In this document: one piece after another, positions 3,125-45,470 of the stretch
Layout: every line of letters starts with the position of its first letter
Numbering within the stretch: the stretch's first letter is position 1
Assembly (NCBI GenBank): GCA_964506785.1
Contig: CAZDME010000001.1
Coordinates: forward strand, 1 to 61,085
From: an uncultured bacterium
GTDB lineage: Bacteria > CAZDME01 > JAYEMH01
Direction of reading: 5' to 3'
Length of the DNA stretch: 61,085 nt
The notes under the pieces: model-generated
Databases searched by the model: none
What the model was told of the DNA's origin: nothing
Seen by the model: the letters and a program-made list of their open reading frames with translations, nothing else
Made by a program: the position numbers and the translations under genes

Positions 3125-3215
3125 GTAGATGATGGCTTCCATTAGCTGTTGGCTCAGAGTTCATCGCTCATGGCTAAAAGAAAACACCTTTTTTGCCATT
3201 AGCTAAGAGCCAGAA
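3125..3215. repeat. family-A heptamer array abutting parS
   Basis: gtagatg atggctt ccattag ctgttgg ctcagag ttcatcg ctcatgg ctaaaag, then gccatta gctaaga gccagaa immediately before parS. Confidence 0.75.
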
Positions 3216-3231
3216 TGTTTCACGTGAAACA
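3216..3231. promoter_or_regulatory. parS site (perfect)
   Basis: TGTTTCACGTGAAACA. Confidence 0.85.
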
Positions 3232-4994: not shown

Positions 4995-5057
4995 GACTCG
5001 TTGATTGTGGCTGATGGCTCATAGCTGATTGCTTCCGCCAAAAGAGCTATGAGCCAA
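4995..5057. repeat. family-A heptamer array abutting parS
   Basis: gactcgt tgattgt ggctgat ggctcat agctgat tgcttcc gccaaaa gagctat gagccaa. Confidence 0.75.
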
Positions 5058-5059
5058 AT

Positions 5060-5075
5060 TGTTTCACGTGAAACA
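5060..5075. promoter_or_regulatory. parS site (perfect)
   Basis: TGTTTCACGTGAAACA. Confidence 0.85.
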
Positions 5076-6487: not shown

Positions 6488-6490
6488 GCA

Positions 6491-6660
6491 AATTTAGACA
6501 TTTTTGAACAAGTCTGGACAATTTTGGATGCCTGAAATTGAGAAATATTTCTTGGAAGAAAGGTTTTTTCGACCCGAAGAAACTCGGGCGAGAGCAACGC
6601 TTAAAACGACAAAAATGGACATATTTTGGCATTTTTGTACATATTTGGACAATTACTGGC
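6491..6660 (+). repeat. 10-nt-phased TGGACA-like repeats (family D, two clusters)
   Basis: tttagacatt tttgaacaag tctggacaat tttggatgcc (6491-6530). aaatggacat attttggcat ttttgtacat atttggacaa ttactggcat (about 6613-6662). Confidence 0.7.
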
Positions 6661-6707
6661 ATGGTTTCCTGAGAATCTTTCTGTTCTTTGCATTTGCTGA
6701 AGTTGCC

Positions 6708-6757
6708 TGTGGATAACCTGGAGACATCTGTGGATAACTTAATACATTTGTGGACTG
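6708..6757 (-). promoter_or_regulatory. DnaA-box trio
   Basis: TGTGGATAA at 6708-6716 and 6729-6737 (both 9/9 as the reverse complement of TTATCCACA). TGTGGACTG at 6749-6757 (7/9). Box starts are spaced 21 and 20 nt apart. Confidence 0.75.
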
Positions 6758-6780
6758 GGGTAGGCAAGTCTCAACTTTTC

Positions 6781-6830
6781 TGGACAAATTTGGACACTTC
6801 TGGACAAATTTGGACACTTTTGAAGACATA
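6781..6830 (+). repeat. tandem 2 x 20-bp (4 x 10-bp) TGGACA repeat
   Basis: tggacaaatt tggacacttc tggacaaatt tggacacttt, followed by a degenerate fifth unit tgaagacata. Lies immediately upstream of parA. Confidence 0.85.
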
Positions 6831-6847
6831 AAAGGGAGTTTTTTGTT

Positions 6848-7612
6848 GTGTCAAAAGTTTTTGCGGTAGCCAATCAAAAAGGGGGCGTTGGCAAAACCAC
6901 CACCGTTTTAGGCTTGGCGGCTTGTTTTGCTTTTGCCGGGAAAAAGGTTTTGGTGGTTGATTTTGACCCTCAGGGTCAGGCGACTTCTGGCCTGGGGCTG
7001 GAAAAGGATAAAATTTCCCGGACAGTTTATTCCTGTCTTTTTGAAATAACGCGGCCTTTGGCCCTGGCGCAGGAGACAAAGGTAAAAAACCTCAAAATTA
7101 TCCCTTCTAATATTGAGCTGGCCGGGGCTGAGGTGGAGTTGGTTGAAGTGCCGCAGAGGGAGGAACGCCTGCGGCGTTTAATCGAAAAAATCCGCCAGCG
7201 CTTTGACTTTGTTTTAATTGACTGCCCGCCATCTCTGGGGATATTGACGGTCAATGCTCTGGTGGCCGCCGATAGTGTTATTATTCCCGTCCAGTGCGAA
7301 TATTATGCCTTGGAAGGATTGAGCCAATTGGTAAACTCCATCAACCTGATCCAGGCCGGGCTTAATCCGCATCTATCAATCGAGGGAGTCGTTTTAACCA
7401 TGCATGATGTGCGCATTAACCTTTCCGCACAGGTAATAGATGAAGTTAGAAACTTTTTTCAGGAGAAGGTTTTTAAAGCGGTTGTTCCGCGCAATGTCCG
7501 CCTCGCCGAAGCACCCAGTTTTGGCCAGCCAATTATTCAATATGACCTCCGCTCAGCCGGGGCCGAAGCTTACCTGCGCCTGGCCAAGGAAATTTTAAAA
7601 AGATACAGATAA
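6848..7612 (+). CDS. parA: ParA/Soj chromosome partitioning ATPase
   Basis: 254 aa. GTG start, deviant Walker A KGGVGKTT, followed by parB. Confidence 0.93.
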   Translation: MSKVFAVANQKGGVGKTTTVLGLAACFAFAGKKVLVVDFDPQGQATSGLGLEKDKISRTVYSCLFEITRPLALAQETKVKNLKIIPSNIELAGAEVELVEVPQREERLRRLIEKIRQRFDFVLIDCPPSLGILTVNALVAADSVIIPVQCEYYALEGLSQLVNSINLIQAGLNPHLSIEGVVLTMHDVRINLSAQVIDEVRNFFQEKVFKAVVPRNVRLAEAPSFGQPIIQYDLRSAGAEAYLRLAKEILKRYR

Positions 7613-7665
7613 AAATTTACAGTATACAGATAACAATTAATGATTTAAGTTAACAGTTTACAGTT
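7603..7665 (+). repeat. family-C heptamer array (ACAG-type)
   Basis: atacaga taaaaat ttacagt atacaga taacaat taatgat ttaagtt aacagtt tacagtt. It starts inside the last codons of parA and contains the parA stop codon. Confidence 0.75.
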
Positions 7666-7684
7666 CGTGTTTAACCATAAACTG

Positions 7685-7792
7685 AAATAACGAGCGAACG
7701 ATATAACGGGAAACACGATAACGAGATAACGGACAACGGAATAACGTGATAACGAGCGATGAGATAACGTGATAACGGGGGACGTGATAACG
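7685..7792 (+). repeat. family-B array (nGATAACG units, 7-8-nt period), largest copy
   Basis: At least 13 consecutive units ending in ACG: gaaataacg agcgaacg atataacg ggaaacacg ataacg agataacg gacaacg gaataacg tgataacg ... tgataacg ggggacg tgataacg. Confidence 0.9.
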
Positions 7793-7810
7793 AAGTCGAG
7801 GAGGAAAAAC

Positions 7811-8653
7811 ATGGCTAGACAGGTTTTAGGACGGGGATTAAGTGCGCTTATCTCCCGAGAAAGCGCCGAAAAAAGGGAGGAGGTTCGCCAATTAAATATT
7901 AAAGATGTGGTTGCCAGTCAGTTTCAACCGCGCCAGGATTTTGACTCCAGACAACTTAATGAGTTGGTGACTTCCATTAAAGAAAAAGGGGTAATTCAGC
8001 CGATTCTAGTCCGTCCTCTGGGTGACAAATATGAATTAGTGGCCGGGGAACGGCGATGGCGGGCTACCAAAGAACTGGGCTGGAAAAAAATTCCGGCTAT
8101 GTTGAAAAATGTTTCCGATACCGAGGCCTTGGAGTTAACCTTAATTGAAAATCTGCAAAGGCAGGATTTAAATCCTATTGAGGAAGCCAAGGCCTATGAA
8201 CGTTTGCTCAAGGACTTTAAGCTCACCCAGGAAAAATTAGCCAGGCAAATTGGTAAAGAGCGGGTTTCTGTGGCTAACACCTTGAGACTCCTTAAATTGC
8301 CCCAGGCGATTAAAGAGGAGATTTCCCGGGGACGCCTTTCGGCGGGTCAGGCTCGGCCCTTGCTGTCTTTAAAGAATTCAGCTAAGCAAGAGGAGCTTGG
8401 AAAAAAAATTATAAAAAAGGGGTTGTCGGCCAGAGAAGTAGAACAAGTCGTTCAAAAAATGCTTTCTTCGGTGCGTTTTCAGCCGCGGCGGTTTAAAAGG
8501 AACACCCAGCTCCTGGAAATTGAGGAGAAATTGCGTCATATCTTTGGCACCCAGGTACGCCTTAGACAAAAGGGAAATAAAGGAAAGATTGAAATAGAAT
8601 TCTATTCTGCCGAGGATTTGGATAGGATTCTGGAAGTAATCAGACCGAAGTAG
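7811..8653 (+). CDS. parB: ParB/Spo0J partition protein
   Basis: ORF 7769-8653 trimmed to ATG 7811 (AGGAGG at 7799-7804). N-terminus MARQVLGRGLSALI, ParB box GERRWRA, HTH region. Confidence 0.92.
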   Translation: MARQVLGRGLSALISRESAEKREEVRQLNIKDVVASQFQPRQDFDSRQLNELVTSIKEKGVIQPILVRPLGDKYELVAGERRWRATKELGWKKIPAMLKNVSDTEALELTLIENLQRQDLNPIEEAKAYERLLKDFKLTQEKLARQIGKERVSVANTLRLLKLPQAIKEEISRGRLSAGQARPLLSLKNSAKQEELGKKIIKKGLSAREVEQVVQKMLSSVRFQPRRFKRNTQLLEIEEKLRHIFGTQVRLRQKGNKGKIEIEFYSAEDLDRILEVIRPK

Positions 8654-8661
8654 AAAATAGG

Positions 8662-9615
8662 ATGAATTTATTAACGGTGCCCGCGAGTAGTTTAAAAAAA
8701 GAACATCCGGTAAAAATACCAATTCCTGATTGGCTGGTGAAAGAGGTTAGCTCCAAGCGTAATTTGGGTAGTCTGCCCAAAATTTTAAAGGAGGCTGGTC
8801 TTCGTACTGTTTGCCAGGCGGCCCGCTGTCCCAATATCGGCGAATGTTTTTCCCGGGGGACGGCCACCTTTTTAATTCTGGGCGATATTTGCCGCCGCCA
8901 ATGTCGTTTTTGTAGCATAAAAAAAAGGCCTTCCGGGTATTTACCCGTAGATAAGGATGAACCGGCACGGATCGCTCAAACAGTTCAGCAGCTCGGGCTT
9001 GGATATGTGGTGGTTACCTCAGTCAGCCGTGATGACCTGCCTGACGGAGGAGCCGAACATTTTGCCCGGACAATCAGAAAGATAAAAAGCCGCACCCCGG
9101 GGATAACGGTAGAGGTTTTAATCCCTGATTTTTCTGGCCATCTCGAGGCATTAAAAACGGTGGTTAAAGAAAGGCCCGAGGTAATTAATCATAATTTAGA
9201 GACGGTCGAATCTCTTTATCCGAAGGTTCGCCCGCAGGCGGATTATAAGCGCTCACTGGAGTTACTTAGAAGGATAAAGGGTCTGGATGCCCGGATTGTT
9301 ACCAAGTCAGGTTTAATCCTGGGGTTAGGAGAAGAAAAAGAAGAAATCCAAAAAGCCCTTAATGATTTACAGCAGGCTCAGGCGGATATTTTAACCTTAG
9401 GTCAGTATTTACAGCCGACGGTCAGGGAACTGGCTGTAGAGAAATATCTTACCCGGCAGGAATTTGCTTTTTGGCAGAAAGCAGCCGAGGCATTGGGTTT
9501 TCTTTTTGTCGCTTCGGGAAACCTGGTTCGCAGCTCATACAGGGCAGAAGAAGCCTATAAAAGAGCGTTATCCCGTTCGTCGTTATCTCGTTTTCAGGGT
9601 AACGATATAACGTGA
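8662..9615 (+). CDS. lipA: lipoyl synthase
   Basis: 317 aa. Cys clusters CQAARCPNIGEC and radical-SAM CRRQCRFC. The last ~15 codons are encoded by a family-B array. Confidence 0.93.
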   Translation: MNLLTVPASSLKKEHPVKIPIPDWLVKEVSSKRNLGSLPKILKEAGLRTVCQAARCPNIGECFSRGTATFLILGDICRRQCRFCSIKKRPSGYLPVDKDEPARIAQTVQQLGLGYVVVTSVSRDDLPDGGAEHFARTIRKIKSRTPGITVEVLIPDFSGHLEALKTVVKERPEVINHNLETVESLYPKVRPQADYKRSLELLRRIKGLDARIVTKSGLILGLGEEKEEIQKALNDLQQAQADILTLGQYLQPTVRELAVEKYLTRQEFAFWQKAAEALGFLFVASGNLVRSSYRAEEAYKRALSRSSLSRFQGNDIT

Positions 9616-9620
9616 TAACG
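9566..9620. repeat. family-B inverted arrays (CGTTATC units, then GATAACG units)
   Basis: cgttatc ccgttcgt cgttatct cgtttt, then cagg, then gtaacg atataacg tgataacg. Overlaps the 3' end and stop codon of lipA. Confidence 0.8.
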
Positions 9621-9637
9621 GCATTTAAATTTTACAG

Positions 9638-9656
9638 TGGAAATTTTTGTTTTCCA
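9638..9656. repeat. small A/T-rich hairpin between family-B arrays
   Basis: tggaaa-tttttgt-tttcca. Confidence 0.4.
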
Positions 9657-9661
9657 TTTTT

Positions 9662-9690
9662 GACGAGATAACGGGATAACGAAAAAAACG
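9662..9690 (+). repeat. family-B array upstream of def
   Basis: gacg agataacg ggataacg aaaaaaacg. It ends 8 nt before the def ATG. Confidence 0.8.
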
Positions 9691-9698
9691 GAGAAAGA

Positions 9699-10199
9699 AT
9701 GAAAGGATTACGAATCTACAAATATGGAGAGCCGATATTACGCAAAAAATGTGCCCAAATAAAAGAAGTTACTGATGAAGTAGGAGAAACTCTTGCGGCG
9801 ATGAGCCGAACGATGTATGAATCCCAGGGGGTAGGATTAGCCGCGCCCCAGATTGGGCTGGGGAAACGCTTGATTGTTGTTGATATTGGCGATGGCCTCT
9901 GGGAATTGATGAATCCCAGAATTGTCTCCCGGCGGGGAGAAACTATTTCCCTGGAGGGATGTCTGAGTCTGCCAGGGATTACCGTAAATGTCAAACGTGC
10001 CAAGGAGGTTACTGTAGAGGCTTTAGAGAAAAAAGGGGAGAAGATAATGCTCGAAGCCAAAGGCCTATTTGCTTTCGCCCTGCAGCACGAAATTGACCAT
10101 CTGGACGGTGTTTTGATTATTGACTATCTTGAGAAAAAAGAGAAAAAGGCAGTTGAGGAAAAGTTAAAAAAGTGGTTAAAAGAAACACCAAAAATGTAG
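9699..10199 (+). CDS. def: peptide deformylase
   Basis: 166 aa. Motifs GVGLAAPQIG, EGCLS and QHEIDHL. Confidence 0.95.
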   Translation: MKGLRIYKYGEPILRKKCAQIKEVTDEVGETLAAMSRTMYESQGVGLAAPQIGLGKRLIVVDIGDGLWELMNPRIVSRRGETISLEGCLSLPGITVNVKRAKEVTVEALEKKGEKIMLEAKGLFAFALQHEIDHLDGVLIIDYLEKKEKKAVEEKLKKWLKETPKM

Positions 10200-10996
10200 G
10201 ACACAGAGAAAAACGGAGCCGGGTAAATATAATCCTCTTTGGGCCGGTTTCTTCCCGGCGCCTGGGGAAATCCTTAGGCATTAATCTTATCCCGCCCAAA
10301 ACCTGCTCTTTGGATTGTATCTATTGCCAGCTTGGCAGCACCCCCAAAACCTCGGTAAAGCGTTATTCTTATCTTTCCGCGAACGAAGTCGAGACAAACC
10401 TAAAAAGATTTTTGGCCAAAGGAGGACGGGCCGATTATCTTACTCTTTCCGGGGGGGGGGAACCCACTCTTAACGCTCAGATTGGAAAGATTATCAGGCG
10501 GATTAAAACAATAAGCAGACTGCCGGTAGCCGTACTTACCAACGCCACCCTTTTTACTTCCCCTAAGGTGCGGCGAGAATTGCTGGCGGCGGATTTAGTT
10601 TTGCCTTCTCTGGATGCCGCCCGCCAAGCAACCTTTAAAAAAATTAATCGCCCCCATCGCAGATTAAAGATTAAAAATATCATCCAGGGCTTGCAACTCT
10701 TTCGCCGTCAATTTAAGGGGAAATTGTGGCTGGAAATTATGTTGGTAAGAAATATAAACGACTCAAAAAAAGAGCTTGAAGCCTTAAACAAAGCCGTATT
10801 GGCCATTAAACCGGATAAGATTCAGTTAAATACCGTGGTCAGGGAGCCGGCGGAAAAATTTGCCCATCCACTGACCGTCAGCCAACTCCAGAAAACAAAG
10901 AAATTTTTTGGCGACCGCTGTGAAATAATCAGCGGGCGCAAAGATAAAAGGAAAAGAATGCTTAAAGCCCTCAAGCCAAATTATCACACTTCGTAA
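10172..10996 (+). CDS. radical SAM protein (function unknown)
   Basis: 274 aa. CSLDCIYC (CxxxCxxC) cluster. Overlaps def by 28 nt. Its last codons and TAA stop lie inside the REP hairpin. Confidence 0.8.
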   Translation: MVKRNTKNVGHREKRSRVNIILFGPVSSRRLGKSLGINLIPPKTCSLDCIYCQLGSTPKTSVKRYSYLSANEVETNLKRFLAKGGRADYLTLSGGGEPTLNAQIGKIIRRIKTISRLPVAVLTNATLFTSPKVRRELLAADLVLPSLDAARQATFKKINRPHRRLKIKNIIQGLQLFRRQFKGKLWLEIMLVRNINDSKKELEALNKAVLAIKPDKIQLNTVVREPAEKFAHPLTVSQLQKTKKFFGDRCEIISGRKDKRKRMLKALKPNYHTS

Positions 10997-11007
10997 GTGT
11001 GATAATT
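10979..11007. repeat. REP hairpin (RAYT-flanking, loop CGT)
   Basis: aattatcacactt-cgt-aagtgtgataatt, a 13-bp perfect stem. Confidence 0.9.
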
Positions 11008-11030: not shown

Positions 11031-11723
11031 ATGAAGAGCAAGGATATTAAAAAATTCGGCAGCACATTAGTTACGGGAGAAATTTACCATATTTTTAGTA
11101 AAAGCATCGCTGGTTTTAGAATATTTAAGCGGAAAGCGGAATTTAAAAGGATAAAAGAGATGCTTCAATATTATGTTTTTGAAAAACCTTCCATAAGATT
11201 TTCTTATTTTCTCCGGGCGCCTCAGAAAGAAAAAGAGAAATTCGTAGAAGCCGTTTCTAAAAATAATATTCAGAATAAAGGAAAAATTGTTAACATAGTT
11301 GCCTACTGTATTATGCCTACCCATATTCACTTAGTTCTGCAGCCTCTCAAGGAAAGGGGGATTTCCATATTTATGAAAAATCTTCTTGATAGCTACACGC
11401 GTTATTTTAATGTCAAATATAAAAGAAAAGGGCCTCTTTGGGAAGGAAGATTTAAAAGAGTTTGGGTCGGGTCAGAAAATCAACTCCTTCATCTTACCAG
11501 ATATATTCATTTAAACCCGGTTACTGCGGGGTTAGTTAAAAGGCCAGAGGAATGGTTTGCATCCTCCTTTAACGAATATATAGAAGGTGATAGAAAGGAT
11601 AAGCTTTGTAGATATGATGCACTTTTAAAGATTTCTCCAGAGTCCTATAAAAAATTTGTAAAAGAAAGAATTTTTTATCAGAAACAACTTGCAAAAATTA
11701 AGGAATTGACCTTTGATGTATAA
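11031..11723 (+). CDS. REP-associated tyrosine transposase (IS200/IS605 Y1 family, RAYT-like)
   Basis: 230 aa. HUH motif in CIMPTHIHLVLQP and catalytic-Tyr motif LTRYIHLNPV. Flanked by REP hairpins. Confidence 0.85.
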   Translation: MKSKDIKKFGSTLVTGEIYHIFSKSIAGFRIFKRKAEFKRIKEMLQYYVFEKPSIRFSYFLRAPQKEKEKFVEAVSKNNIQNKGKIVNIVAYCIMPTHIHLVLQPLKERGISIFMKNLLDSYTRYFNVKYKRKGPLWEGRFKRVWVGSENQLLHLTRYIHLNPVTAGLVKRPEEWFASSFNEYIEGDRKDKLCRYDALLKISPESYKKFVKERIFYQKQLAKIKELTFDV

Positions 11724-11728: not shown

Positions 11729-11753
11729 TTATCACACTTCGTAAGTGTGATAA
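11729..11753. repeat. REP hairpin (RAYT-flanking, loop CGT)
   Basis: ttatcacactt-cgt-aagtgtgataa, an 11-bp perfect stem. Confidence 0.9.
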
Positions 11754-12428: not shown

Positions 12429-14735
12429 TTGATTTTAAGTCTTGCTTTTATCCTGACCGGGTTCACCTCTACGGTGACCCAGGCCATGCTGGTCCGCGAA
12501 TTAGTTGCTGTTTTTCTAGGCAACGAATTATCCTTAGGAATTATATTTTCCAGCTGGCTCTTCTGGGTAGCCGCCGGTAGCTTCTTTCTCGGCCGCTTAG
12601 TCGACCGGATAAAAAATAAACTCCGTTCTTATATTTCCTTCCAGATTCTCCTTTCTTTGATTTTGATTCCCATCCTCTTGGGGATAAAAGGCATCAGGCC
12701 CTTCTGGCATATTCCACCGGGAGAACTCATTGGATTTTTCCCTTTTGTCATCTCTGTTTTTCTGGTTTTGGCGCCGGTCGGTCTCATTCTTGGGTTTCAG
12801 TTTGCCCTGGCCTGCCGTCTTTATGCCCAAAAGAAATCCCGGACTGCTCTTCAAGGGAAGATAAAGGAAGCGAGTCTCGATTTTCAAAATACACCCAAGA
12901 CGGCAGGTAAAGTCTACCGGCTTGATGCCTTAGGGGATATGTTCGGAGGAGTAACCTTTGCCTATCTTTTTGTCAACATTTTCCAGTCTTTTGAGACGGC
13001 AGCCAGTCTGGCTATTTTAAATTTGGCTTTAGCTATCACCCTGAGCCTCATAGTCTTAAAGAAAAAGATTTTATCTTTTTTGGGCTTTTCCCTCCTTCTC
13101 GTCTTCACTTATGGCTTGGGCTCTCCTTTGATGCATAACATAAATGGCTATGCTAATCGCCTGGAATGGAAAGGTATGAATTTTCAGGCGACAGATTTCT
13201 CTAAGTATAGTGACTATGCGGTAATTAAGGATGAATCAAGCTTTTATATTTACGGGGACGGTCAATTAAAATTTAGCCTCCCGGAGAAAGCGTTGCCGGA
13301 AGAAATTATTCACCTGAGCCTTTCGCAGATAGAAAATCCCGGGAGGATTCTTTTAATCGGCGGGGGAATAAGCGGGGCCATCAGGGAAGCCTTAAAATAC
13401 CCCGCCTTAAAAGAGATTTTCTATTTAGAAAAAGATTCCGTCTTTATCCGTTTAGCCGAAAGGTATATCGGCCCGAAGGATAGAAATGCCTTAACTGACG
13501 CGCGGACCAAAATCGTCTTTGGCGACGGGAGGCTGTTTATCAAGGATTATCAAGGGGAAAAGTTTGACGGTATTATTTTAAACGCCGGCAACCCGCTGAC
13601 TGCCGAAAGCAATCGTTTTTATACCTTAGAGTTTTTTAATGAAGTAAAAAGGATTCTTAACCCCAGGGGGATATTTTTTTTAGGTGTTGATTCCCACGAG
13701 AATTATTTGTCGCCGGAGATGAGAAAATTTAACGCTTGTATCTACCAGACGCTGAAAGAGGCCTTCCCTCATATTATACTTTTCCCCGGGGGGACTCTTT
13801 ATCTGGTTGCCTCTTCTTCACCAGATTTTTTAACCGATAATCCCCAGGTTTTATCCCGGAGATTAAAGAGACGTGGGATTTTTTCTCAATACATCAATGA
13901 AGGGATTCTTCCCCAGCGCTTGAGTCCGGAAAGGCTTTCTTATATCCAGGAAATTTTATTATCCGAGGAAAAAGGAAGACTCAATCGAGATTTTCATCCC
14001 ATTAGCTATTATTACAACCTCATTCTTTGGGGGAGCAGGATTTTCCCTGAAAACCGGGCTAATATTTTCTGGCGCCTTTCCCGGATAAAATTCAGCCGGC
14101 TGGCCCTTGGCCTTATTCTGGCCGGTTTCGTCTTAATGCTCTTCCGGCCTAAATCAGGAAAAGGGTTTATTCCCCTGGTGGTTTCTATTGGCGGCTTGGC
14201 CGGTATCTCTTTAGAGTTAATTTTGATTATTGGCTTTCAAATTATCTACGGCAACCTTTATTTTATGATTGGGGTAATTGTCGCTTCTTTTATGCTGGGG
14301 CTGGTAGCCGGCGCCGGTTTTATAACCCGGCGGCTGGATAAAATTAAAAAGAAGTATTTAACCCTGGGACGGATAGAGCTGGGTCTGGGGATTTATGCTT
14401 TATTTATTGCTTTGAGTCTTTTAATGCTGAATCTTTGGCCATCCCAGCCTCTTGTTATCAGCACCCGGATTATTTTTCCGCTCTTGACTGTTTTTTGCGG
14501 CATCTGGGTAGGGATGCTTTTCCCTTTAGCAAACGATATATATTTGGCCAAGCTTGAGGCGGTGGGCAGGACCGCCGGAAAACTTTATGCCTTTGATTTA
14601 ATGGGCGCTTGTCTCGGCTCTCTGGCCACGGCGGTTTTTCTTATTCCCCTTTTCGGCCTCATCCAGACGGCGTTTCTAATAGGCCTCATTTGCCTTTTAG
14701 GGTTTTTATTGGTGTCCATTTTAAACCATGTCTGA
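12429..14735 (+). CDS. polytopic membrane protein fused to a spermidine-synthase-like domain
   Basis: 768 aa. TTG start with AGGAGG at 12412-12417. Many TM helices at both ends and a central Rossmann-like domain (LLIGGGISGAIRE, FDGIILN). Confidence 0.8.
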   Translation: MILSLAFILTGFTSTVTQAMLVRELVAVFLGNELSLGIIFSSWLFWVAAGSFFLGRLVDRIKNKLRSYISFQILLSLILIPILLGIKGIRPFWHIPPGELIGFFPFVISVFLVLAPVGLILGFQFALACRLYAQKKSRTALQGKIKEASLDFQNTPKTAGKVYRLDALGDMFGGVTFAYLFVNIFQSFETAASLAILNLALAITLSLIVLKKKILSFLGFSLLLVFTYGLGSPLMHNINGYANRLEWKGMNFQATDFSKYSDYAVIKDESSFYIYGDGQLKFSLPEKALPEEIIHLSLSQIENPGRILLIGGGISGAIREALKYPALKEIFYLEKDSVFIRLAERYIGPKDRNALTDARTKIVFGDGRLFIKDYQGEKFDGIILNAGNPLTAESNRFYTLEFFNEVKRILNPRGIFFLGVDSHENYLSPEMRKFNACIYQTLKEAFPHIILFPGGTLYLVASSSPDFLTDNPQVLSRRLKRRGIFSQYINEGILPQRLSPERLSYIQEILLSEEKGRLNRDFHPISYYYNLILWGSRIFPENRANIFWRLSRIKFSRLALGLILAGFVLMLFRPKSGKGFIPLVVSIGGLAGISLELILIIGFQIIYGNLYFMIGVIVASFMLGLVAGAGFITRRLDKIKKKYLTLGRIELGLGIYALFIALSLLMLNLWPSQPLVISTRIIFPLLTVFCGIWVGMLFPLANDIYLAKLEAVGRTAGKLYAFDLMGACLGSLATAVFLIPLFGLIQTAFLIGLICLLGFLLVSILNHV

Positions 14736-14804
14736 TCAGGCTAAAGGATTTAACAAAAAGTCAAGGAAGATGGCTAAAAAAATAGGGATGATTCAAAAAA
14801 ATAT

Positions 14805-14833
14805 TTGCCAAACTATAGGCTATAGTGTATAAT
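14805..14833 (+). promoter_or_regulatory. sigma70-type promoter
   Basis: TTGCCA (14805-14810), 17-nt spacer, TATAAT (14828-14833). Confidence 0.65.
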
Positions 14834-14861
14834 GGGATAAACTTGAAAAAGGGGGAGATTT

Positions 14862-15875
14862 TTGCATTTTAAAAAGCGCATTTTTATTTATCTAATTTTA
14901 CTTGCTGGAATTTTTTCTCTTCAAGTTACTGGATTTTTTGCCCCGGTAAGAACCCAAAGGAGTTTATTTCGCCATTCGCCTAAGGCAACGGTATTGGAAG
15001 ATGAGGCCGCTGCCTCTGACGACTTATTCCTTGCCGCGGTCAAATCAGAAACCTGCCAGGCAGAAGTCAAAGCTGAAGAAGTTGAATCAGAACCCTTCAC
15101 CGGTAAAGGAGGTCCGCAAGAGCCTGAACTGGAATTAAGTTTCTCCCCCTATGAAGTCCAGCCCGGGGATAATCTCTGGGAAATTGCCAAGCGGGAAAAT
15201 CTTGATTTAGATACTTTAATCAGCGCCAATAAGCTTAAACGGGCAAATTTAATTAATGCCGGAGACATCCTCCATATCCCCAATCAAAAAGGCATATTCC
15301 ATAAAGTTAGGAAGGGTGAGACTCTTTCGGAAATTGCTAAGATTTATAAAGTAACCATAGAGGAAGTTTTAGAGATAAATGAGATAGAAGATCCCCAGGC
15401 TTTAACTATAAACGCGCAGTTATTTATTCCCGGAGCTAAACTTCTCCCTGAAGAGAGGGAATATATTTTAGGCTGGGGTTTTATCAGGCCCTGCCGGGGA
15501 TGGATTTCTTCCCGATATGGTTGGAGGCGGGATCCTTTTACCGGGCAACGGAGATTTCATCACGGTATAGATTTAGCCGCCCCGCGAGGAACGCCGGTTT
15601 ATGCGGCTCGGGACGGCCGGGTTATCCGTTCCGGCTGGACAGGAGGATACGGACGGATAATTATCATCAAACATAGCCGGGGCTATTCTACCCGTTATGG
15701 GCACAATTCAGTTAACCTGGTTAAAAATGGCCAATACGTGAGACAAGGCCAGCTTATTGCCCGGGTTGGCAACTCCGGGCGCTCTACTGGTTCTCACCTG
15801 CACTTTGAAGTTCGCCGTTGGGGCCGTCCACTTAATCCGCTTCCTCTAATCAGGAGTTATGCCCGCCGGAAATAA
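14862..15875 (+). CDS. LysM-domain M23 peptidase (active-site intact)
   Basis: 337 aa. Two LysM repeats. M23 motifs HHGIDLAAPRGTPV and GSHLHFEV. Confidence 0.9.
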   Translation: MHFKKRIFIYLILLAGIFSLQVTGFFAPVRTQRSLFRHSPKATVLEDEAAASDDLFLAAVKSETCQAEVKAEEVESEPFTGKGGPQEPELELSFSPYEVQPGDNLWEIAKRENLDLDTLISANKLKRANLINAGDILHIPNQKGIFHKVRKGETLSEIAKIYKVTIEEVLEINEIEDPQALTINAQLFIPGAKLLPEEREYILGWGFIRPCRGWISSRYGWRRDPFTGQRRFHHGIDLAAPRGTPVYAARDGRVIRSGWTGGYGRIIIIKHSRGYSTRYGHNSVNLVKNGQYVRQGQLIARVGNSGRSTGSHLHFEVRRWGRPLNPLPLIRSYARRK

Positions 15876-16496: not shown

Positions 16497-16502
16497 AAAA
16501 AT

Positions 16503-16543
16503 CGTTATTCATCTATCGTTATCTCGTGTATCTGTTCTTACGG
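16503..16543 (-). repeat. family-B array, reverse units (CGTTATC)
   Basis: cgttattcatctat cgttatct cgtgtatctgttcttacgg. Confidence 0.7.
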
Positions 16544-16573
16544 TGTGATACTTAGATAATGAAAGACTTGTCA

Positions 16574-16602
16574 TTTTATCACACTTACGAAGTGTGATAA
16601 AA
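16574..16602. repeat. REP hairpin (dispersed copy, loop ACG)
   Basis: ttttatcacactt-acg-aagtgtgataaaa, a 13-bp perfect stem. Confidence 0.9.
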
Positions 16603-16620
16603 TGTGTTTTGGCACATTTT

Positions 16621-16658
16621 AAACGTGATAACGAACAACGAAATAACGTGATAAAGCG
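16621..16658 (+). repeat. family-B array, forward units
   Basis: aaacg tgataacg aacaacg aaataacg tgataaagcg. It ends 4 nt before ATG 16663. Confidence 0.8.
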
Positions 16659-16662
16659 AAAA

Positions 16663-17340
16663 ATGCTAAAATATTTATTGCTTGGATTAGCCGTTTTTTT
16701 ATCTGGCTGTGTTACCACCATGGGGGGAGAAGAGGTGGCTCGCTTGCAGTATGGATTGGGCCGGTTGAACAAGCAGACAAACGAAGCCTTAGAAAAAATA
16801 GAAAAGAAGGAAGAGTTTTTAGAAAATAAGTTAGCCGTTTTAGAAGACGAAGTTAAAGAGTTAAAAAATGAAATAGATGTTAATCGGCAAGCCCTCATAA
16901 AGATTGAGCCGGGAGTAGTTAGTGCCCAGGGCTGGCTTTTGCCTCAGGAAAAAGAAAGTCAATTATTCCAGACCGCTTATAGCGACTATCTCAAAGGGCA
17001 ATATTCCCTGGCGGTTATGGGTCTTCAGGAATATTTGCGTTTAAATCCCCAAGGGTCTCGGGCAGCCGAGGCAGAGTATTGGTTGGCAGAGTCATTTTTT
17101 AGCCAGAAGGATTTTAAATCGGCCGTTGAAGAGTTTGACAAATTAATTAAAAACCATCCCAAAAGCCGCTGGGCAGCTCCGGGGCTGTACAAAAAAGCCC
17201 TGGCCCTGGCCAAAGACGGAAAAGACGCTGATGCCCTGGTGATTGCCGAAGAAATTATTACCAAGTTTCCAAAAAGTGACGAAAGCAGATTAGCCGAGGA
17301 ATTAAAGAAGGAATTAGAGCCACAGATTCCCAAACCCTAA
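16663..17340 (+). CDS. Tol-Pal system protein YbgF/CpoB-like (coiled coil + TPR)
   Basis: ORF 16594-17340 trimmed to ATG 16663, which gives the lipoprotein-type signal LLGLAVFLSGC. Coiled coil followed by TPR repeats. Confidence 0.75.
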   Translation: MLKYLLLGLAVFLSGCVTTMGGEEVARLQYGLGRLNKQTNEALEKIEKKEEFLENKLAVLEDEVKELKNEIDVNRQALIKIEPGVVSAQGWLLPQEKESQLFQTAYSDYLKGQYSLAVMGLQEYLRLNPQGSRAAEAEYWLAESFFSQKDFKSAVEEFDKLIKNHPKSRWAAPGLYKKALALAKDGKDADALVIAEEIITKFPKSDESRLAEELKKELEPQIPKP

Positions 17341-19448: not shown

Positions 19449-19450
19449 TA

Positions 19451-19492
19451 AAAACAGTTTACAGTTAACAGTGGACAGTGAACAGTCGGCAG
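19451..19492 (+). repeat. family-C heptamer array (six units ending in CAG)
   Basis: aaaacag tttacag ttaacag tggacag tgaacag tcggcag. Confidence 0.9.
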
Positions 19493-19644
19493 AAAAACAC
19501 TGCATAATTCAGAAGATGTGTTTGTGCTAGAAAAAAATTTACTTTTTCGTTTATGCAATTTTGCCTTAGCCTGCCCCTGTGTGTCGGTAGGCAGTCCACA
19601 GAGAAAGATAAATAAAATTGCAATTGTTCTAATCATTCCCCCAT

Positions 19645-19673
19645 TTTTATCACACTTACGAAGTGTGATAAAA
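19645..19673. repeat. REP hairpin (dispersed copy, loop ACG)
   Basis: ttttatcacactt-acg-aagtgtgataaaa. Confidence 0.9.
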
Positions 19674-19693
19674 GAGTGATATTTTTTGCTTTC

Positions 19694-19744
19694 AACGAGA
19701 TGCCGGGCAACGGGATAACGTGATAACGATATAACGAGATGACG
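19694..19744 (+). repeat. family-B array
   Basis: aacg agatgccgggcaacg ggataacg tgataacg atataacg agatgacg. Confidence 0.8.
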
Positions 19745-23684: not shown

Positions 23685-23702
23685 AAGTTGATTCATCAAG
23701 GC

Positions 23703-23830
23703 AGACGGGAAAAGGGAAACGGTAGAAGGGAGACGGGAGATGAAAAAGAAGGGAGAAGAGAGATGGTAAACGGGAAAAGAAGGGAAACGGTAGAAGGGAG
23801 ACGGAAAATGGAAGATGAGAAAAAAAAGGA
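23703..23830 (+). repeat. family-F purine-rich heptamer array with a 23-nt direct repeat
   Basis: GGGAAACGGTAGAAGGGAGACGG occurs at 23714-23736 and 23782-23804. The whole leader reads as heptamers (acgggaa aagggaa acggtag aagggag acgggag ...). Confidence 0.8.
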
Positions 23831-23834
23831 AATT

Positions 23835-24704
23835 ATGTATGGGATGAAAGGTTTAGTATCGGCAGCGCTAATTGTATCTATTGGCCTCTTGGCTGGCTGC
23901 GGCCGGAAAGCAAAAGAAGTTGCAGCAGTAGTTAATGGAAAGAAAATTTTAGTTTCTGAATTTAAAGATAAACTTAGCCGGATGCCCGCTTATTTTCAGC
24001 AAAACGACATTCAGCGACGGAAATTTCTGGAAAGTCTCATTGACCGGGAAATTCTTCTGGCGGAAGCCAGGAGGAAAGGCTTGGCTAAAAACAAAGCAGT
24101 CAAGGATCGGCTGAATATTGCTTTAGACCAGATTTTAATCGAAGAATTGGTTAAAACGGCTGTTCCTGAAATAACAGTTAATGATGAAACGCTGCAAAGA
24201 TATTACGAGACTAATAAAGGTACCTTTATCGAGCCGGAAAAAGTTCGGGTAAGTCAAATTTTAATCCGTTCGGCTAAAGAGGGGGCGGATATTTTAAAGC
24301 AATTAAAAGAAGGGAAGGATTTTGAGGCTCTTGCCCGGACAAAGTCTATTAGCCCCGATGCCAGCCGAGGCGGAGATATTGGATTTTTCGGCCGCGGGGA
24401 GATGCTACCGGAATTTGAGAAAGCTGCGTTTAGTTTACAAAAAGGGGAAATTAGCAGTATCATTAAATCTCCCTTTGGCTACCATATCTTGAAAGTAACC
24501 GACAAGAAAGAAAAAGGGCAGAAAAGTTTTTCTGAAGCAAAGGAAGAGATTAAAGCAATTTTAAGGCAGAAACAGCAAAGAGAAGATTTGGATGCCTGGT
24601 TTAAAGAATTGAAAAAAAAGGCAAAGATTAAAATAAACGAGGAGTTTTTGGCCCCAAAGCCTGAAGATGAGAGTAAAGATACAGCCGGAGAGCAAAAGCA
24701 GTAA
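23835..24704 (+). CDS. parvulin-type peptidyl-prolyl isomerase lipoprotein (PpiC/PrsA-like)
   Basis: ORF 23688-24704 trimmed to ATG 23835, which gives the signal SIGLLAGC. Parvulin domain (GGDIGFFGRGEMLPEFE, FGYHILKV). Confidence 0.8.
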   Translation: MYGMKGLVSAALIVSIGLLAGCGRKAKEVAAVVNGKKILVSEFKDKLSRMPAYFQQNDIQRRKFLESLIDREILLAEARRKGLAKNKAVKDRLNIALDQILIEELVKTAVPEITVNDETLQRYYETNKGTFIEPEKVRVSQILIRSAKEGADILKQLKEGKDFEALARTKSISPDASRGGDIGFFGRGEMLPEFEKAAFSLQKGEISSIIKSPFGYHILKVTDKKEKGQKSFSEAKEEIKAILRQKQQREDLDAWFKELKKKAKIKINEEFLAPKPEDESKDTAGEQKQ

Positions 24705-27221: not shown

Positions 27222-27250
27222 TTTTATCACACTTACGAAGTGTGATAAAA
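27222..27250. repeat. REP hairpin (dispersed copy, loop ACG)
   Basis: ttttatcacactt-acg-aagtgtgataaaa, with flanks cccgcca and gtgtggtgttttctgctttaaacg. Confidence 0.9.
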
Positions 27251-27270
27251 GTGTGGTGTTTTCTGCTTTA

Positions 27271-27329
27271 AACGAGACAATGTGATAACGGGACAACGAG
27301 ATAACGAGCAACGGGATAACGGGATGACG
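27271..27329 (+). repeat. family-B array containing the gatB start codon
   Basis: aacg agacaatg tgataacg ggacaacg agataacg agcaacg ggataacg ggATGacg. Confidence 0.85.
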
Positions 27330-30788: not shown

Positions 30789-30865
30789 CTGATTGCTCAT
30801 AGCTCTTAGTGGATAACTAACTAATCTTTTTTCGTCTAACCATGAGCCATGAGCAAAGAGCAAAC
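30789..30865. repeat. family-A heptamer element, homologous to 1981-2053
   Basis: ctgattgctcatagctcttagtgg, then a spacer, then taaccatgagccatgagcaaagagcaaac. Confidence 0.8.
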
Positions 30866-30885
30866 AGCCAGGGGGAGTTAGGAGA

Positions 30886-30920
30886 CAAACTGTAAACTGT
30901 CCACTGTACACTGTTAACTG
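30886..30920 (-). repeat. family-C heptamer array, inverted orientation (units ending in CTG)
   Basis: caaactg taaactg tccactg tacactg ttaactg. This is the reverse complement of the CAG-type units at 19451-19492. Confidence 0.88.
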
Positions 30921-30932
30921 GAAACTTAACCC

Positions 30933-31457
30933 ATGTCCATCAAATACAGCCTAAGGCTTCTTAATATTATTACCGCGGTGGTTCTTTTAATTTTCTCTTC
31001 CTTTATGATTATTAAACTGAACAAAGCTGCCAATACCATAGAAACATTGGTTTTCCTAAAGGATGATTTAAGCAAGGAGGAGATTGAAGGGTTAAAAATG
31101 CGCCTCAAGGCCTTTAAAGGGATAAAAACAATAAAATTTTCTCATCCCGATGAAACTCTCAAAATGTGGACAAAAACCATAGAGAGAAAAAAACTTTTAG
31201 AAATTATTGATACAAACCCATTTCCGCCTCTTTTCCGAATCCAACTAAAAAAAGGAAAAAGCCTGAGAAGCCTTTACCGGATGAGGACCACCCTCGAACA
31301 AATTTCCGGGATCAAGAAAGTTGAGTATGGCGGAAGGCGGACGGAAGAGGTAATCAAGCGGACCCAGAGATATCTTTTTGCCTTTATTGTTGCCTTTTTT
31401 GCCGCTTTAATAAATATTTTAGACCATGTTTTTATCACCTATTATACGCGGAAGTAG
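30933..31457 (+). CDS. FtsX-like protein reduced to TM1-extracellular domain-TM2
   Basis: 174 aa. TM helix, an FtsX-ECD-like region (VFLKDDLSKEEIEGLKMRL...NPFPP...GIKKVEY), a second TM helix, then a stop. TM3 and TM4 are absent. Confidence 0.55.
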   Translation: MSIKYSLRLLNIITAVVLLIFSSFMIIKLNKAANTIETLVFLKDDLSKEEIEGLKMRLKAFKGIKTIKFSHPDETLKMWTKTIERKKLLEIIDTNPFPPLFRIQLKKGKSLRSLYRMRTTLEQISGIKKVEYGGRRTEEVIKRTQRYLFAFIVAFFAALINILDHVFITYYTRK

Positions 31458-32661: not shown

Positions 32662-32665
32662 ATAC

Positions 32666-32708
32666 CGTTATCCCGTTGTTCGTTATTTCGTCAACGAGAT
32701 AACGGGAT
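32666..32708. repeat. family-B inverted arrays
   Basis: cgttatc ccgttgtt cgttattt cgtc, then aacg agataacg ggata. Confidence 0.8.
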
Positions 32709-32774
32709 ATTTCAATGCCGTTTCAATGCGGGTTTGAAATTTGAGTTTGGGATTATTAGCTTGGAATTTGTCTT
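32709..32774 (+). repeat. 11-nt duplication plus TTTGnnn heptamers
   Basis: tttcaatgccg tttcaatgcgg, then tttgaaa tttgagt ttgggat tattagc ttggaat ttgtctt. Confidence 0.6.
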
Positions 32775-32809
32775 ACGAGAAAACGAGATAACGGGATAAC
32801 GCAATAACG
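32775..32809 (+). repeat. family-B array upstream of ctpA
   Basis: acg agaaaacg agataacg ggataacg caataacg. Confidence 0.85.
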
Positions 32810-36306: not shown

Positions 36307-36347
36307 CGAAATAACGTGATAACGAGCAACGATATAACGAGATAACG
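36307..36347 (+). repeat. family-B array
   Basis: cgaaataacg tgataacg agcaacg atataacg agataacg, preceded by gtgaatg gtggaat (family E). Confidence 0.88.
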
Positions 36348-36379
36348 ATTAAGGAGATAGCGAGTTTGAGGAAAAAACC

Positions 36380-37048: not shown

Positions 37049-37107
37049 TGCCGGTGAATAGTGCATGGTGAAAACGAGATAACGAAATAACGAGGAACGA
37101 GATAATG
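37049..37107 (+). repeat. family-E (GTGAATn) units followed by a family-B array
   Basis: tgccggtgaatagtgcatggtg, then gaaaacg agataacg aaataacg aggaacg agataatg. Confidence 0.85.
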
Positions 37108-38770: not shown

Positions 38771-38797
38771 TTTTTCACACTTACGAAGTGTGATAAA
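38771..38797. repeat. REP hairpin (dispersed copy, slightly degenerate, loop ACG)
   Basis: tttttcacactt-acg-aagtgtgataaa. The left arm lacks one A. Confidence 0.8.
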
Positions 38798-38818
38798 GGT
38801 GTGATAAAATCTGCTTTT

Positions 38819-38877
38819 AACGGGACAACAAGTAACGAAATGACATGATAACGAGATAACGGGATGGCGTGATAACG
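38819..38877 (+). repeat. family-B array upstream of fhs
   Basis: aacg ggacaacaagtaacg aaatgacatgataacg agataacg ggatggcg tgataacg. Confidence 0.85.
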
Positions 38878-42200: not shown

Positions 42201-42267
42201 GGATTCGTGAATGGTAAATCGTGAATAGTGCAAACGAGATAACGTGATAACGGGAAACGGGATAACG
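42201..42267 (+). repeat. family-E heptamers followed by a family-B array
   Basis: ggattcgtga atggtaaatc gtgaatagtg, then caaacg agataacg tgataacg ggaaacg ggataacg. It ends 4 nt before ATG 42272. Confidence 0.88.
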
Positions 42268-44041: not shown

Positions 44042-44131
44042 CTCATAGCTGATAGCTCATCGTTCATAGAAAACCCATGAGCTAAGAGCCAGGGGCTATA
44101 AACTAGAAGAGCAAGTCAGGAGAGAGAAGCC
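44041..44131 (+). repeat. family-A heptamer tiling of the whole intergenic gap
   Basis: gctcata gctgata gctcatc gttcata gaaaacc catgagc taagagc caggggc tataaac tagaaga gcaagtc aggagag agaagcc, then ggg and ATG 44135. Confidence 0.85.
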
Positions 44132-45371: not shown

Positions 45372-45409
45372 CGTTATTTCGTTATCTCGTTGCTCGTTAT
45401 ATCGTTGCC
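45372..45409 (-). repeat. family-B array, reverse units
   Basis: cgttattt cgttatct cgttgct cgttatat cgttgcc. Confidence 0.88.
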
Positions 45410-45441
45410 CGCTCTCTCGCTGAAAGCAGAAAACCTCATAC

Positions 45442-45470
45442 TTTTATCACACTTACGAAGTGTGATAAAA
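45442..45470. repeat. REP hairpin (dispersed copy; flanks inverted, loop still ACG on the + strand)
   Basis: ttttatcacactt-acg-aagtgtgataaaa. The flanks gaaagcagaaaacctcatac and aggcggaggg are the reverse complement of the flanks at the other copies. Confidence 0.9.

Follow-up and report, generated by a model that had tools for sequence, protein, structure and literature searches.

Intergenic ATAACG arrays in a Ratteibacteria-related bacterium and in rumen Prevotellaceae, possibly leaders that act on translation initiation

Introduction

Short direct repeats close to start codons have been reported a few times in bacteria, namely the heptamers of short tandemly repeated repetitive (STRR) sequences, TAACTGA and GGGAATC, and none has been explained. 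The nearest published analogue of the arrays described here is the TAACTGA repeat, which is distributed patchily across phyla in marine Beggiatoaceae, cyanobacteria and five Bacteroidetes (MacGregor 2015, PMC4679880). Almost all copies are intergenic and mostly forward, ending one to a few tens of nucleotides before start codons, with a few reversed after stop codons; the forward strand is untranslatable and no RNA structure is predicted (PMC4679880). Shine-Dalgarno motifs occur in only about 10% of the gaps that carry these repeats, the downstream genes are unrelated and partly essential, and close relatives have shorter gaps that lack the repeats (PMC4679880). What they do is unknown; the binders proposed for them are ribosomal protein S1, cold-shock proteins (Csp) or CsrA-type proteins (PMC4679880). 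Here we describe arrays built on the hexamer ATAACG in a stretch of 61,085 nucleotides (hereafter the window, meaning the whole stretch analysed) from an uncultured bacterium, positions 1 to 61,085 of contig CAZDME010000001.1 in assembly GCA_964506785.1.

More generally, heptamer repeats are over-represented in the intergenic DNA of many bacteria, and an origin linked to the footprint of the polymerase has been proposed (Rehm et al. 2015, PMC4692102). GGGAATC in Xanthomonas and GGGGAYT in Nostoc vary between close relatives in both length and sequence, and the Xanthomonas repeat has no strand preference relative to genes (PMC4692102). Literature searches with the exact array strings of the window returned no paper, and those for Prevotella with octamer and for octanucleotide repeats returned nothing relevant.

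The starting point was an original prediction, made from the letters of the window, that arrays of 7-8-nt units ending in ACG occupy eleven named intergenic gaps. Arrays were found in all eleven, and the names given to the flanking genes were confirmed by NCBIfam and Pfam. The prediction had missed two things: the TAACTGA analogue, and the attachment of five arrays to a hairpin resembling repetitive extragenic palindromic (REP) elements. Our leading reading, to which we assign a probability of roughly 0.4, is that the arrays form a transcribed leader or spacer module that may act on translation initiation through a repeated single-stranded motif.

Array anatomy and intergenic enrichment

The arrays are a real and strongly non-random feature of the window. 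GATAACG occurs 38 times, compared with 4.65 +/- 2.0 times in dinucleotide shuffles (shuffle maximum 10), and chains of at least four ACG anchors spaced 7-8 nt apart number 12 in the window and 0 in 50 dinucleotide shuffles. Using sliding autocorrelation at lag 8, 2.06% of intergenic sliding windows pass versus 0.05% of coding ones. Periodic segments cover 860 of 6370 intergenic nucleotides (13.5%) versus 404 of 50805 coding nucleotides (0.8%) of the window. The enriched lags are 7 and 8, with lag 10 added at an oriC-like gap, and lags 5, 6, 9 and 11 show no enrichment. Tandem Repeats Finder (TRF) reports period-8 arrays at 7687-7777, 19709-19744, 27271-27330, 32775-32809, 36307-36364, 38818-38877, 42233-42267 and 45372-45406.

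Splitting the arrays after each ACG gave 55 units, 43 of them 8 nt and 9 of them 7 nt long, the most frequent types being AGATAACG (n = 12), TGATAACG (n = 8), GGATAACG (n = 7), ATATAACG (n = 5) and AAATAACG (n = 4). From these counts of unit types and lengths the consensus unit is NNATAACG, in which two variable bases precede a fixed ATAACG and successive units are joined head-to-tail; the RNA version of an array of six tandem units is (NNAUAACG)6. Since detection was anchored on ACG, unit positions 3-5 (A, T, A) played no part in finding the arrays. These positions carry the consensus base in 123 of 129 cases, compared with 56 of 86 at positions 1-2 (Fisher p = 8e-9). Such a fixed hexamer, kept at one phase beside a free spacer, speaks for a repeated motif that is recognised, not for plain slippage.

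Neighbouring units are identical in only 1 of 52 adjacent pairs, and multi-unit blocks common to different loci are no longer than in arrays rebuilt from randomly drawn units. The shared core is therefore not due to recent copying of units or of arrays, and the notion that the arrays are dispersed copies of one another is rejected, as their longest common substrings equal the unit-resampling null. Six assemblies from different samples with identical ParB (loci L001-L006) have an identical array between parA and parB, with two single-nucleotide polymorphisms just upstream, so this array is not hypervariable. Taken together, the identity across independent assemblies and the scarcity of identical neighbours exclude phase variation at parA|parB, in agreement with the earlier argument that the arrays are too degenerate for switching by slippage.

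The same evidence bears on a doubtful alternative, namely that the arrays are a non-adaptive product of slippage and local duplication, made of 7-8-nt units favoured by the polymerase that survive where they are harmless, with the pattern of cores and junctions arising from unit addition. Higher-order TRF periods of 15, 16, 23 and 31 nt, typical of block duplication, are in keeping with such an origin, as are the functionally unrelated housekeeping genes downstream and the general over-representation of intergenic heptamers together with the polymerase-footprint idea (PMC4692102). However, with one identical neighbour pair in 52 and no shared blocks, signs of recent slippage are missing; the parA|parB array has a constant length in the six assemblies, and conservation of the core far exceeds that of the spacer.

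Known structured RNA families gave no match: Rfam 15 yielded no match at gathering score on any array in the window, and none at E <= 1 in 7550-9750. A CRISPR array was rejected on dimensions, the units being 7-8 nt long and directly abutting versus repeats of 24-48 nt with unique spacers.

Positions of the arrays in the window

The chain search recovered 9 forward and 3 reverse arrays, and inspection of the sequence adds a fourth, short reverse array after pal. Their flanking genes were identified by NCBIfam as parA, parB, lipA, def, pal, ybgF, tolB, tolQ, gatA and gatB, and by Pfam as encoding an M23 peptidase, S41/CtpA, TsaD, MgtC, Na/Pi-PhoU, FTHFS, two T2SSE and T2SSF. The arrays and the units that pair with them are as follows.

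7685..7792, plus strand: parA|parB forward array, 13-14 units of NNATAACG or its 7-nt variants
9566..9596, minus strand: reverse array of CGTTATCN units within lipA's last 16 codons, forming the 5' arm of a hairpin
9597..9621, plus strand: forward arm of the lipA hairpin, holding the lipA stop TGA at 9613-9615
9661..9690, plus strand: def leader array of 3 units, stopping 8 nt before the def ATG (9699)
16503..16527, minus strand: short reverse array, beginning 7 nt past the pal stop codon
16618..16660, plus strand: ybgF leader array, stopping 2 nt before the ATG at 16663, without a Shine-Dalgarno motif
19692..19744, plus strand: tolB|tolQ array, attached to the REP-like hairpin, 125 nt 5' of the tolQ ATG
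27269..27329, plus strand: gatB leader array, attached to the REP-like hairpin, with the gatB ATG (27324) within its last unit
32666..32691, minus strand: reverse array after the M23 peptidase gene, given as 32666-32696 by the chain search, beginning 5 nt past the stop codon, 5' arm of a hairpin
32693..32710, plus strand: forward arm of the M23-gene hairpin, from sequence and fold
32770..32809, plus strand: leader array of ctpA (S41 peptidase), 5 units, with GGGGAGGAG in the 22 nt that separate it from the ATG
36309..36347, plus strand: tsaD|mgtC array of 5 units, stopping 32 nt before the mgtC ATG
37069..37106, plus strand: array between mgtC and the Na-Pi transporter gene, 4 units, 14 nt before the ATG
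38819..38877, plus strand: array between the Na-Pi transporter gene and fhs, attached to the REP-like hairpin, 6 nt before the fhs ATG (38884)
42229..42267, plus strand: gspE1|gspE2 array, 5 units, 4 nt before the ATG, without a Shine-Dalgarno motif
45372..45410, minus strand: gspF|clpB reverse array, beginning 5 nt past the gspF stop codon

The parA|parB array, predicted to hold at least 13 units, parses into 13-14 and stops 18 nt before the parB ATG (7811), with GGAGG in between. Forward arrays had been expected to end 4-20 nt before the downstream start codon; the actual distance is 0-32 nt in nine of ten, and tolQ falls outside this range. The gspF|clpB array exists as described except that it is on the reverse strand only. 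Placement between genes on the same strand, also foreseen, holds here and in the Bacteroidales considered below, and the sole overlap of ACG arrays with coding sequence is the reverse array in the 3' end of lipA. Stop codons fall in all three frames, as claimed for every array, in 8 of 11 forward arrays and in only two frames in the other three. Scans for promoter and terminator consensus sequences in the window gave counts near shuffle expectation.

Arrays also mislead gene calling. Taking the longest open reading frame (ORF) places false GTG starts inside arrays for parB (7769), ybgF (16594), gatB (27282) and fhs (38869), the true ATG starts being at 7811, 16663, 27324 and 38884, respectively. 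The original prediction that the gatB ATG sits inside the last unit was correct: 27324 falls within GGATGACG, and this start fits because GatB profile alignments begin at residues 12-17 (mostly 15-17) of the longer ORF. Automatic annotation of array-bearing genomes can be expected to over-extend N-termini in this manner.

Reverse arrays have a distinct placement, with three beginning 5-7 nt past a stop codon and one lying within the last lipA codons. Two of them (9566 and 32666) are immediately followed by forward units, and the pairs form predicted hairpins far stabler than shuffles: 9560-9625 has a minimum free energy of -23.2 (z -3.97) and 32660-32715 one of -19.6 (z -4.05). The reverse array at 16503..16527 is predicted to pair with the ybgF forward array around the REP-like hairpin (fold 16497-16670, z -3.64). 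All three pairs of reverse and forward arrays thus fold with z from -3.6 to about -4.05, supporting the earlier suggestion of a structure where the two orientations meet. At lipA, the last 16 codons and the stop are encoded by the array hairpin (9566-9621), and we therefore conclude that this array was absorbed into the coding region.

A REP-like hairpin joined to some arrays

A perfect hairpin of 27 nt, TTATCACACTTACGAAGTGTGATAA, has seven copies in the window (14 two-strand matches versus 0 expected). Two flank a Y1 transposase gene and five are dispersed.

16572..16604, no strand assigned: REP-like hairpin TTATCACACTTACGAAGTGTGATAA, with further dispersed cores at 19650-19668, 27227-27245, 38775-38793 and 45447-45465
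11031-11723, plus strand: Y1 (IS200-like) transposase gene, with hairpin copies on both sides at 10984-11002 and 11732-11750

All five dispersed copies adjoin an ACG array. In four, a GTGTGATA-TTTTCTGCTTT linker makes the connection; the linker of the copy at 16579 is divergent. The gspF|clpB array is attached, in inverted orientation, to the linker and hairpin, so that 45372-45465 is a complete inverted copy of one hairpin-linker-array unit. Among relatives of the window lineage, L010 has a similar hairpin at the 3' end of its Y1_Tnp gene, and in L133 the same hairpin is followed by GTGTGAT and then GATACG. Copies on both sides of the Y1 gene form an arrangement like that of REP elements with a REP-associated tyrosine transposase (RAYT). 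When the REP/RAYT definition is applied, the hairpin element alone falls under it; the ACG arrays are direct repeats and not themselves REPs. The hairpin with its following A-run also contains a promoter-like match (TTATCA-16-TGnTAAAAT), and with its T-rich tail a terminator-like match.

These associations raise the quite improbable alternative that the arrays are a tail, or a preferred insertion target, of the hairpin TTATCACACTTACGAAGTGTGATAA mobilised by the Y1 transposase (11031-11723). It would account for the adjacency of all five dispersed hairpins to arrays, the linker common to four, the complete inverted copy, the two hairpins around the transposase gene, and the hairpins in L133 (with GTGTGAT and GATACG) and L010 (at the Y1_Tnp 3' end). 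Nevertheless, it accounts for the five hairpin-linked arrays only. Seven array gaps are free of the hairpin (parB, def, ctpA, mgtC, Na-Pi, gspE2 and the hairpin at 32666), arrays share no blocks as copies of one element should, and the Bacteroidales arrays lack such a hairpin in the flanks viewed.

Recurrence in rumen Prevotellaceae and other Bacteroidales

We next consider the distribution of the arrays beyond this lineage. A scan for ATAACGNNATAACGNNATAACG in one genome per GTDB species returned at least 120 matches, compared with about 17 expected by chance over the whole collection by our own arithmetic. About 105 loci among the matches listed belong to rumen or gut Prevotella, Prevotellaceae, Bacteroidaceae and Bacteroidales, including the cultured isolates HUN156 (L085) and KH2P17 (L068). 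Among the Bacteroidales arrays listed, 86 of 113 have a sense ORF (ATG start, at least 80 codons) beginning within 80 nt downstream, at a median of 15.5 nt, and 23 of 113 have one in antisense; in 89 of 109, an ORF on the same strand ends no more than 150 nt upstream, at a median of 8 nt. The 15 listed matches from other phyla are mostly perfect repeats, and only 2 of 13 show the association with a downstream ORF.

Arrays also recur before the same genes. Among the matches listed, 89 arrays from different species include 10 groups that precede orthologous genes, making 14 cross-species pairs, versus about 1.6 expected by chance if genomes have roughly 2,500 genes (own arithmetic). The array-preceded orthologs include tyrS-, pyrH-, ddl- and mraY-like proteins, as judged from their N-termini. 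Identity in these pairs is 43% at spacer bases and 53% at third codon positions, and thus the spacer drifts at about the synonymous rate while the arrays persist. Persistence before the same Prevotellaceae genes at about 53% synonymous-site identity is hard to reconcile with an origin as a mere by-product of slippage, as is a sense bias of about 4:1 very near start codons.

Hairpins like TTATCACACTTACGAAGTGTGATAA were absent beside the Bacteroidales arrays in the flanks viewed, and a search of L009 and 15 Bacteroidales loci with Rfam 15 turned up only tRNAs. Judged by eye, CsrA-like GGA sites seem a poor fit: ANGGA is resembled by the GG-type units only, and of all spacers GG is the least frequent in Bacteroidales. 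Comparison with 16S rRNA, likewise by eye, gave no convincing complement to the arrays. Further 8-nt families, GGATTACG, GAAATCCC, GATTAAGG and CCTTTTAA, stand beside ATAACG arrays in L035, L100, L102 and L105 (Prevotellaceae, Bacteroidaceae and Bacteroidales), and an array with TT spacers, ATAACGTTATAACG, is its own reverse complement.

Origin-proximal surroundings and other repeat families

The window is an origin-proximal part of the chromosome with the gene order dnaA, rpmH, rnpA, yidC, mnmE, parA, parB, and nearly all of its genes are on the plus strand. Four parS sites (TGTTTCACGTGAAACA, one with a single mismatch) at 1961-1976, 2791-2806, 3216-3231 and 5060-5075 surround rnpA, yidC and mnmE, each beside CATAGCT/CATGAGC heptamer arrays, and L007-L009 have parS at corresponding places. 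The gap between mnmE and parA (6488-6847) is origin-like, having DnaA boxes TGTGGATAA at 6708 and 6729 and 10-nt periodic TTTGGACA/TTTGGACAAA repeats (TRF 6778-6819); L007-L010 have kept both the TTTGGACA-type repeats and the DnaA boxes. Upstream of dnaA, at 1456-1860, there is a second DnaA-box cluster.

This setting invites the thought that the arrays bind protein as DNA, whether a nucleoid-associated protein, DnaA titrated near the origin, or a transcription factor at an operator. We consider this very improbable. The window does adjoin the origin, with dnaA, parS and DnaA boxes, and by eye CGTGATAAC resembles the local DnaA box TGTGGATAAC minus one base. However, deletions are not tolerated in a DnaA box, repeats 8 bp apart do not keep in phase with the DNA helix, and the arrays take the orientation of the downstream gene in Bacteroidales as well as here. 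The arrays are moreover spread over 38 kb and always lie between a stop and a start codon.

Other short-period repeats share the window with the ACG arrays. CATAGCT, with its complement CATGAGC, is frequently arranged in inverted pairs, whose hairpins reach z values as low as -3.8. AACAGTT and its complement AACTGTN make up a second heptamer family. Both families fill other gaps in the way that ACG arrays do. Arrays of these two types lie at 2807-2880, 3125-3220, 4997-5060, 30789-30880 and 44032-44110, and at 19449-19496, 30879-30934 and 7630-7666. The segment 23697-23823 is almost purine-only with a 7-nt period (GGGAGAC/GGGAAAC/GGGAAAA) and is in the 5' end of an ORF at 23688-24704 with a TTG start; the true start may be downstream, which would make this segment another intergenic array.

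Two further features lie in the right-hand part of the window. A c-di-GMP-I riboswitch (Rfam RF01051, 59.8 bits, E 3.4e-09) occupies 50702-50784 on the plus strand, in the long gap before a gene starting at 51100, and the L007 gap at 14605-15121 is visibly similar in sequence to this region (by eye). An 844-aa ORF at 52398-54932 is extremely A/G-rich, with a repetitive middle of lysine/glutamate type, an AT skew of up to 0.67 and many TRF rows.

Proposed role and the evidence that weighs against it

As a working model, tandem AUAACG hexamers at an 8-nt (sometimes 7-nt) phase, placed in sense between a stop codon and the next start codon, would act on the mRNA as a purine-rich, weakly folded, multivalent single-stranded platform for downstream initiation. 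They might be read by the 30S subunit, by ribosomal protein S1 or by a putative oligomeric RNA-binding protein, with a logic like the triplet-plus-spacer sites of the trp RNA-binding attenuation protein (TRAP). The TRAP target in the Bacillus trp leader consists of 9-11 GAG/UAG triplets separated by 2-3 variable nucleotides. With a TAA in each unit and a period not divisible by three, closure of all reading frames would follow as a second property. A reverse copy just past a stop codon would pair with a forward copy into a 3' hairpin that tolerates several pairing registers. As to origin, arrays probably arise and vanish locally and turn over between species, part of them being attached to the REP-like hairpin.

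We favour this reading, with its motif platform, because a conserved core beside a free spacer, no trace of recent slippage, a sense and start-proximal orientation in two phyla, and persistence before the same Prevotellaceae genes all occur together. The purine content, weak folding and frame closure of the forward arrays and the stable hairpins of the reverse-forward pairs are also in its favour, and TAACTGA repeats offer a published precedent for this layout and for the suggested way of acting (PMC4679880). That the arrays are transcribed, act as RNA rather than DNA, have a binder and affect translation is what we infer from this combination. The oligomeric binding site suggested in the original prediction fits the ATAACG core, the sense orientation and the proximity to start codons, but no candidate binder, TRAP homologue or other, was identified from the window sequence. 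A wider claim, which we hold to be possible though unlikely, is that a multivalent RNA-binding factor, or else 30S/S1 loading in a special mode, targets AUAACG arrays at 8-nt phase. The arrays would then provide a global post-transcriptional layer over many operon-internal genes, common to rumen Prevotellaceae/Bacteroidales and the Ratteibacteria-related lineage, with a logic akin to that of TAACTGA.

Several observations weigh against a leader role, some of them from close relatives. The lineage is isolated: ParB and YidC are 61-81% identical within a clade of about six members, and outside it identity is at most 54% (ParB) and 40% (YidC). One close relative is a Candidatus Ratteibacteria metagenome-assembled genome with a CtpA 79% identical, and a metagenome scan with CtpA found no relative. 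We read the orthologous gaps in seven syntenic loci from relatives with 72-81% protein identity. Gene order is conserved in these relatives and the gaps are not, the same positions having other units or no gap or array at all. In L007, for example, parA and parB overlap, and the gspE1|gspE2 gap of L131 is 40 nt long with AAGGA and no array, compared with 81 nt and a five-unit array in the window. No individual array can therefore be indispensable, and the gene-specific regulatory role considered earlier is weakened. Single arrays are evidently gained, lost and replaced, the habit of making arrays being the trait of the lineage.

Units in the relatives' gaps include inverted CCATAGT/ACTATGG pairs, NNATACG, TTCGTGA/GAACGNN, TAATCAG, ATTAAGG, AACCGGNN and GATACCA. 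ACG-ending units recur in L132 and L133, and GATAACG chains are absent from L007, L008, L010 and L131. A TAACTGA-type array, with the same heptamer as in Beggiatoaceae, lies directly before a called partial ORF in L009 (9025-9313). Ten TTCGTGA/TTCGTGG units followed by their complement occupy L133 16064-16166, and L131 14662-14822 contains long inverted CCATAGT/ACTATGG arrays. That close relatives differ at the same gaps in the kind of unit and in having an array at all, and that each genome contains many unit families, is in keeping with a non-adaptive by-product of slippage.

Further points against the leader role come from the window itself. At least three other, unrelated 7-nt families coexist there (CATAGCT, AACAGTT and the purine-only 7-mer), which resembles a general process of making arrays more than the work of one specific binder. 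The tolQ array is 125 nt away from its start codon. Six of ten array-preceded genes have a GGAG-/GAGG-type motif or a weaker G-rich stretch, four of ten lack one, and many array-less genes also lack a Shine-Dalgarno motif, so the idea that arrays replace this motif in this genome is unsupported. Forward arrays are no less structured than dinucleotide shuffles (z -1.6 to +0.5, about -0.5); special lack of structure through base order is thereby ruled out, and their low folding is a matter of composition only. Finally, we do not use the cross-species core identity of 0.97 as evidence, as it is inflated by the choice of loci with a pattern requiring three perfect cores.

The folding result is equally relevant to the idea that the arrays are passive physical spacers, which we judge unlikely. 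No motif would then be recognised, and any sequence rich in purines and free of self-pairing would suffice to keep the initiation region open, separate cistrons and stop stray ribosomes in every frame, with tandem copying as the cheapest way of making it. The sense strand of the arrays is 66-77% purine and forward arrays fold weakly in absolute terms (about -0.1 kcal/mol per nt), stops fill all frames in 8 of 11, and other purine- or A-rich families occupy the same gaps of relatives. Bacteroidales, whose phylum is known to rely little on Shine-Dalgarno pairing, have arrays that fill the spacer from stop to start, with medians of 8 nt and 15.5 nt. A passive spacer, however, gives no account of a near-invariant ATAACG beside two drifting bases, nor of the same hexamer in two unrelated phyla. 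Folding is no weaker than in composition-matched shuffles, and the co-resident CATAGCT and AACAGTT are not purine-rich.

Recurrence in abundant and partly culturable rumen Prevotellaceae makes a long-standing puzzle testable. Because of this partial culturability, experiments are feasible in Prevotellaceae, unlike in Beggiatoaceae or the window lineage. If a binder or an effect on translation is real, the arrays would reveal how operon-internal genes are initiated with little or no Shine-Dalgarno pairing. If there is neither, they would serve well as a model for how compact genomes make and filter non-coding tandem DNA. One unit would seem to have two uses: in sense orientation it would be an open leader, and inverted it would supply one arm of a hairpin.

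Comparison with known systems

The ATAACG arrays share their general design with several described systems and differ from each. REP elements and the bacterial interspersed mosaic elements built from them, together with RAYT genes, resemble the hairpin of the window, which is perfect, dispersed between genes, flanks a Y1 gene and forms mosaics with short motifs. The ACG arrays themselves differ from these elements in being direct repeats rather than palindromes, and in being mostly free of the hairpin.

TRAP targets offer an analogy of design only: identical binding pockets set in a ring or filament would be expected to read such a fixed motif, at fixed phase with free spacers, in single-stranded leader RNA close to a start codon. 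The motif here is 6 nt at an 8-nt phase, compared with 3 nt at 5-6 nt for TRAP, and there are dozens of targets per 61 kb compared with a handful per genome.

Cyanobacterial STRR sequences, GGGAATC and GGGGAYT resemble the arrays in being short-period tandem repeats enriched in intergenic DNA, tied to no single gene class and sometimes arranged in inverted pairs (PMC4692102). STRR-type heptamers also recur at the same gene pairs in related species despite their variation, and their function is unsettled (PMC4692102). However, they are G-rich, capable of forming quadruplexes and nearer to the upstream gene, whereas the window arrays are A-rich, adjacent to start codons and in sense. Set against the STRR definition, the arrays show the intergenic enrichment, but their period is mainly 8 and their units are not copied whole; CATAGCT and AACAGTT fit it better.

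The likeness to TAACTGA repeats is closest, as both are intergenic, forward, start-codon-proximal and rich in stops, with a few reverse copies after stop codons. Further likenesses are the absence of a predicted RNA structure of their own, unrelated and partly essential genes downstream, shorter repeat-free gaps in close relatives and a patchy spread across phyla. A TAACTGA-type array itself was seen only in the relative L009. In contrast to the heptamer, which is copied whole, the window unit is 8 nt long with a fixed hexamer and two free bases. Window arrays reach 13-14 units, compared with 2-6, and are never perfect. Their reverse copies are systematically paired into hairpins, and part of the family is carried on a REP-like hairpin. 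The carriers are also different, being the Ratteibacteria-related lineage and rumen Prevotellaceae. The ATAACG arrays are thus not categorically new and belong to the little-understood short direct repeats close to start codons. What is new relative to published repeats is the period of 8, the fixed hexamer with a free dinucleotide, the length of the arrays, their systematic pairing into hairpins, and the organisms that carry them.

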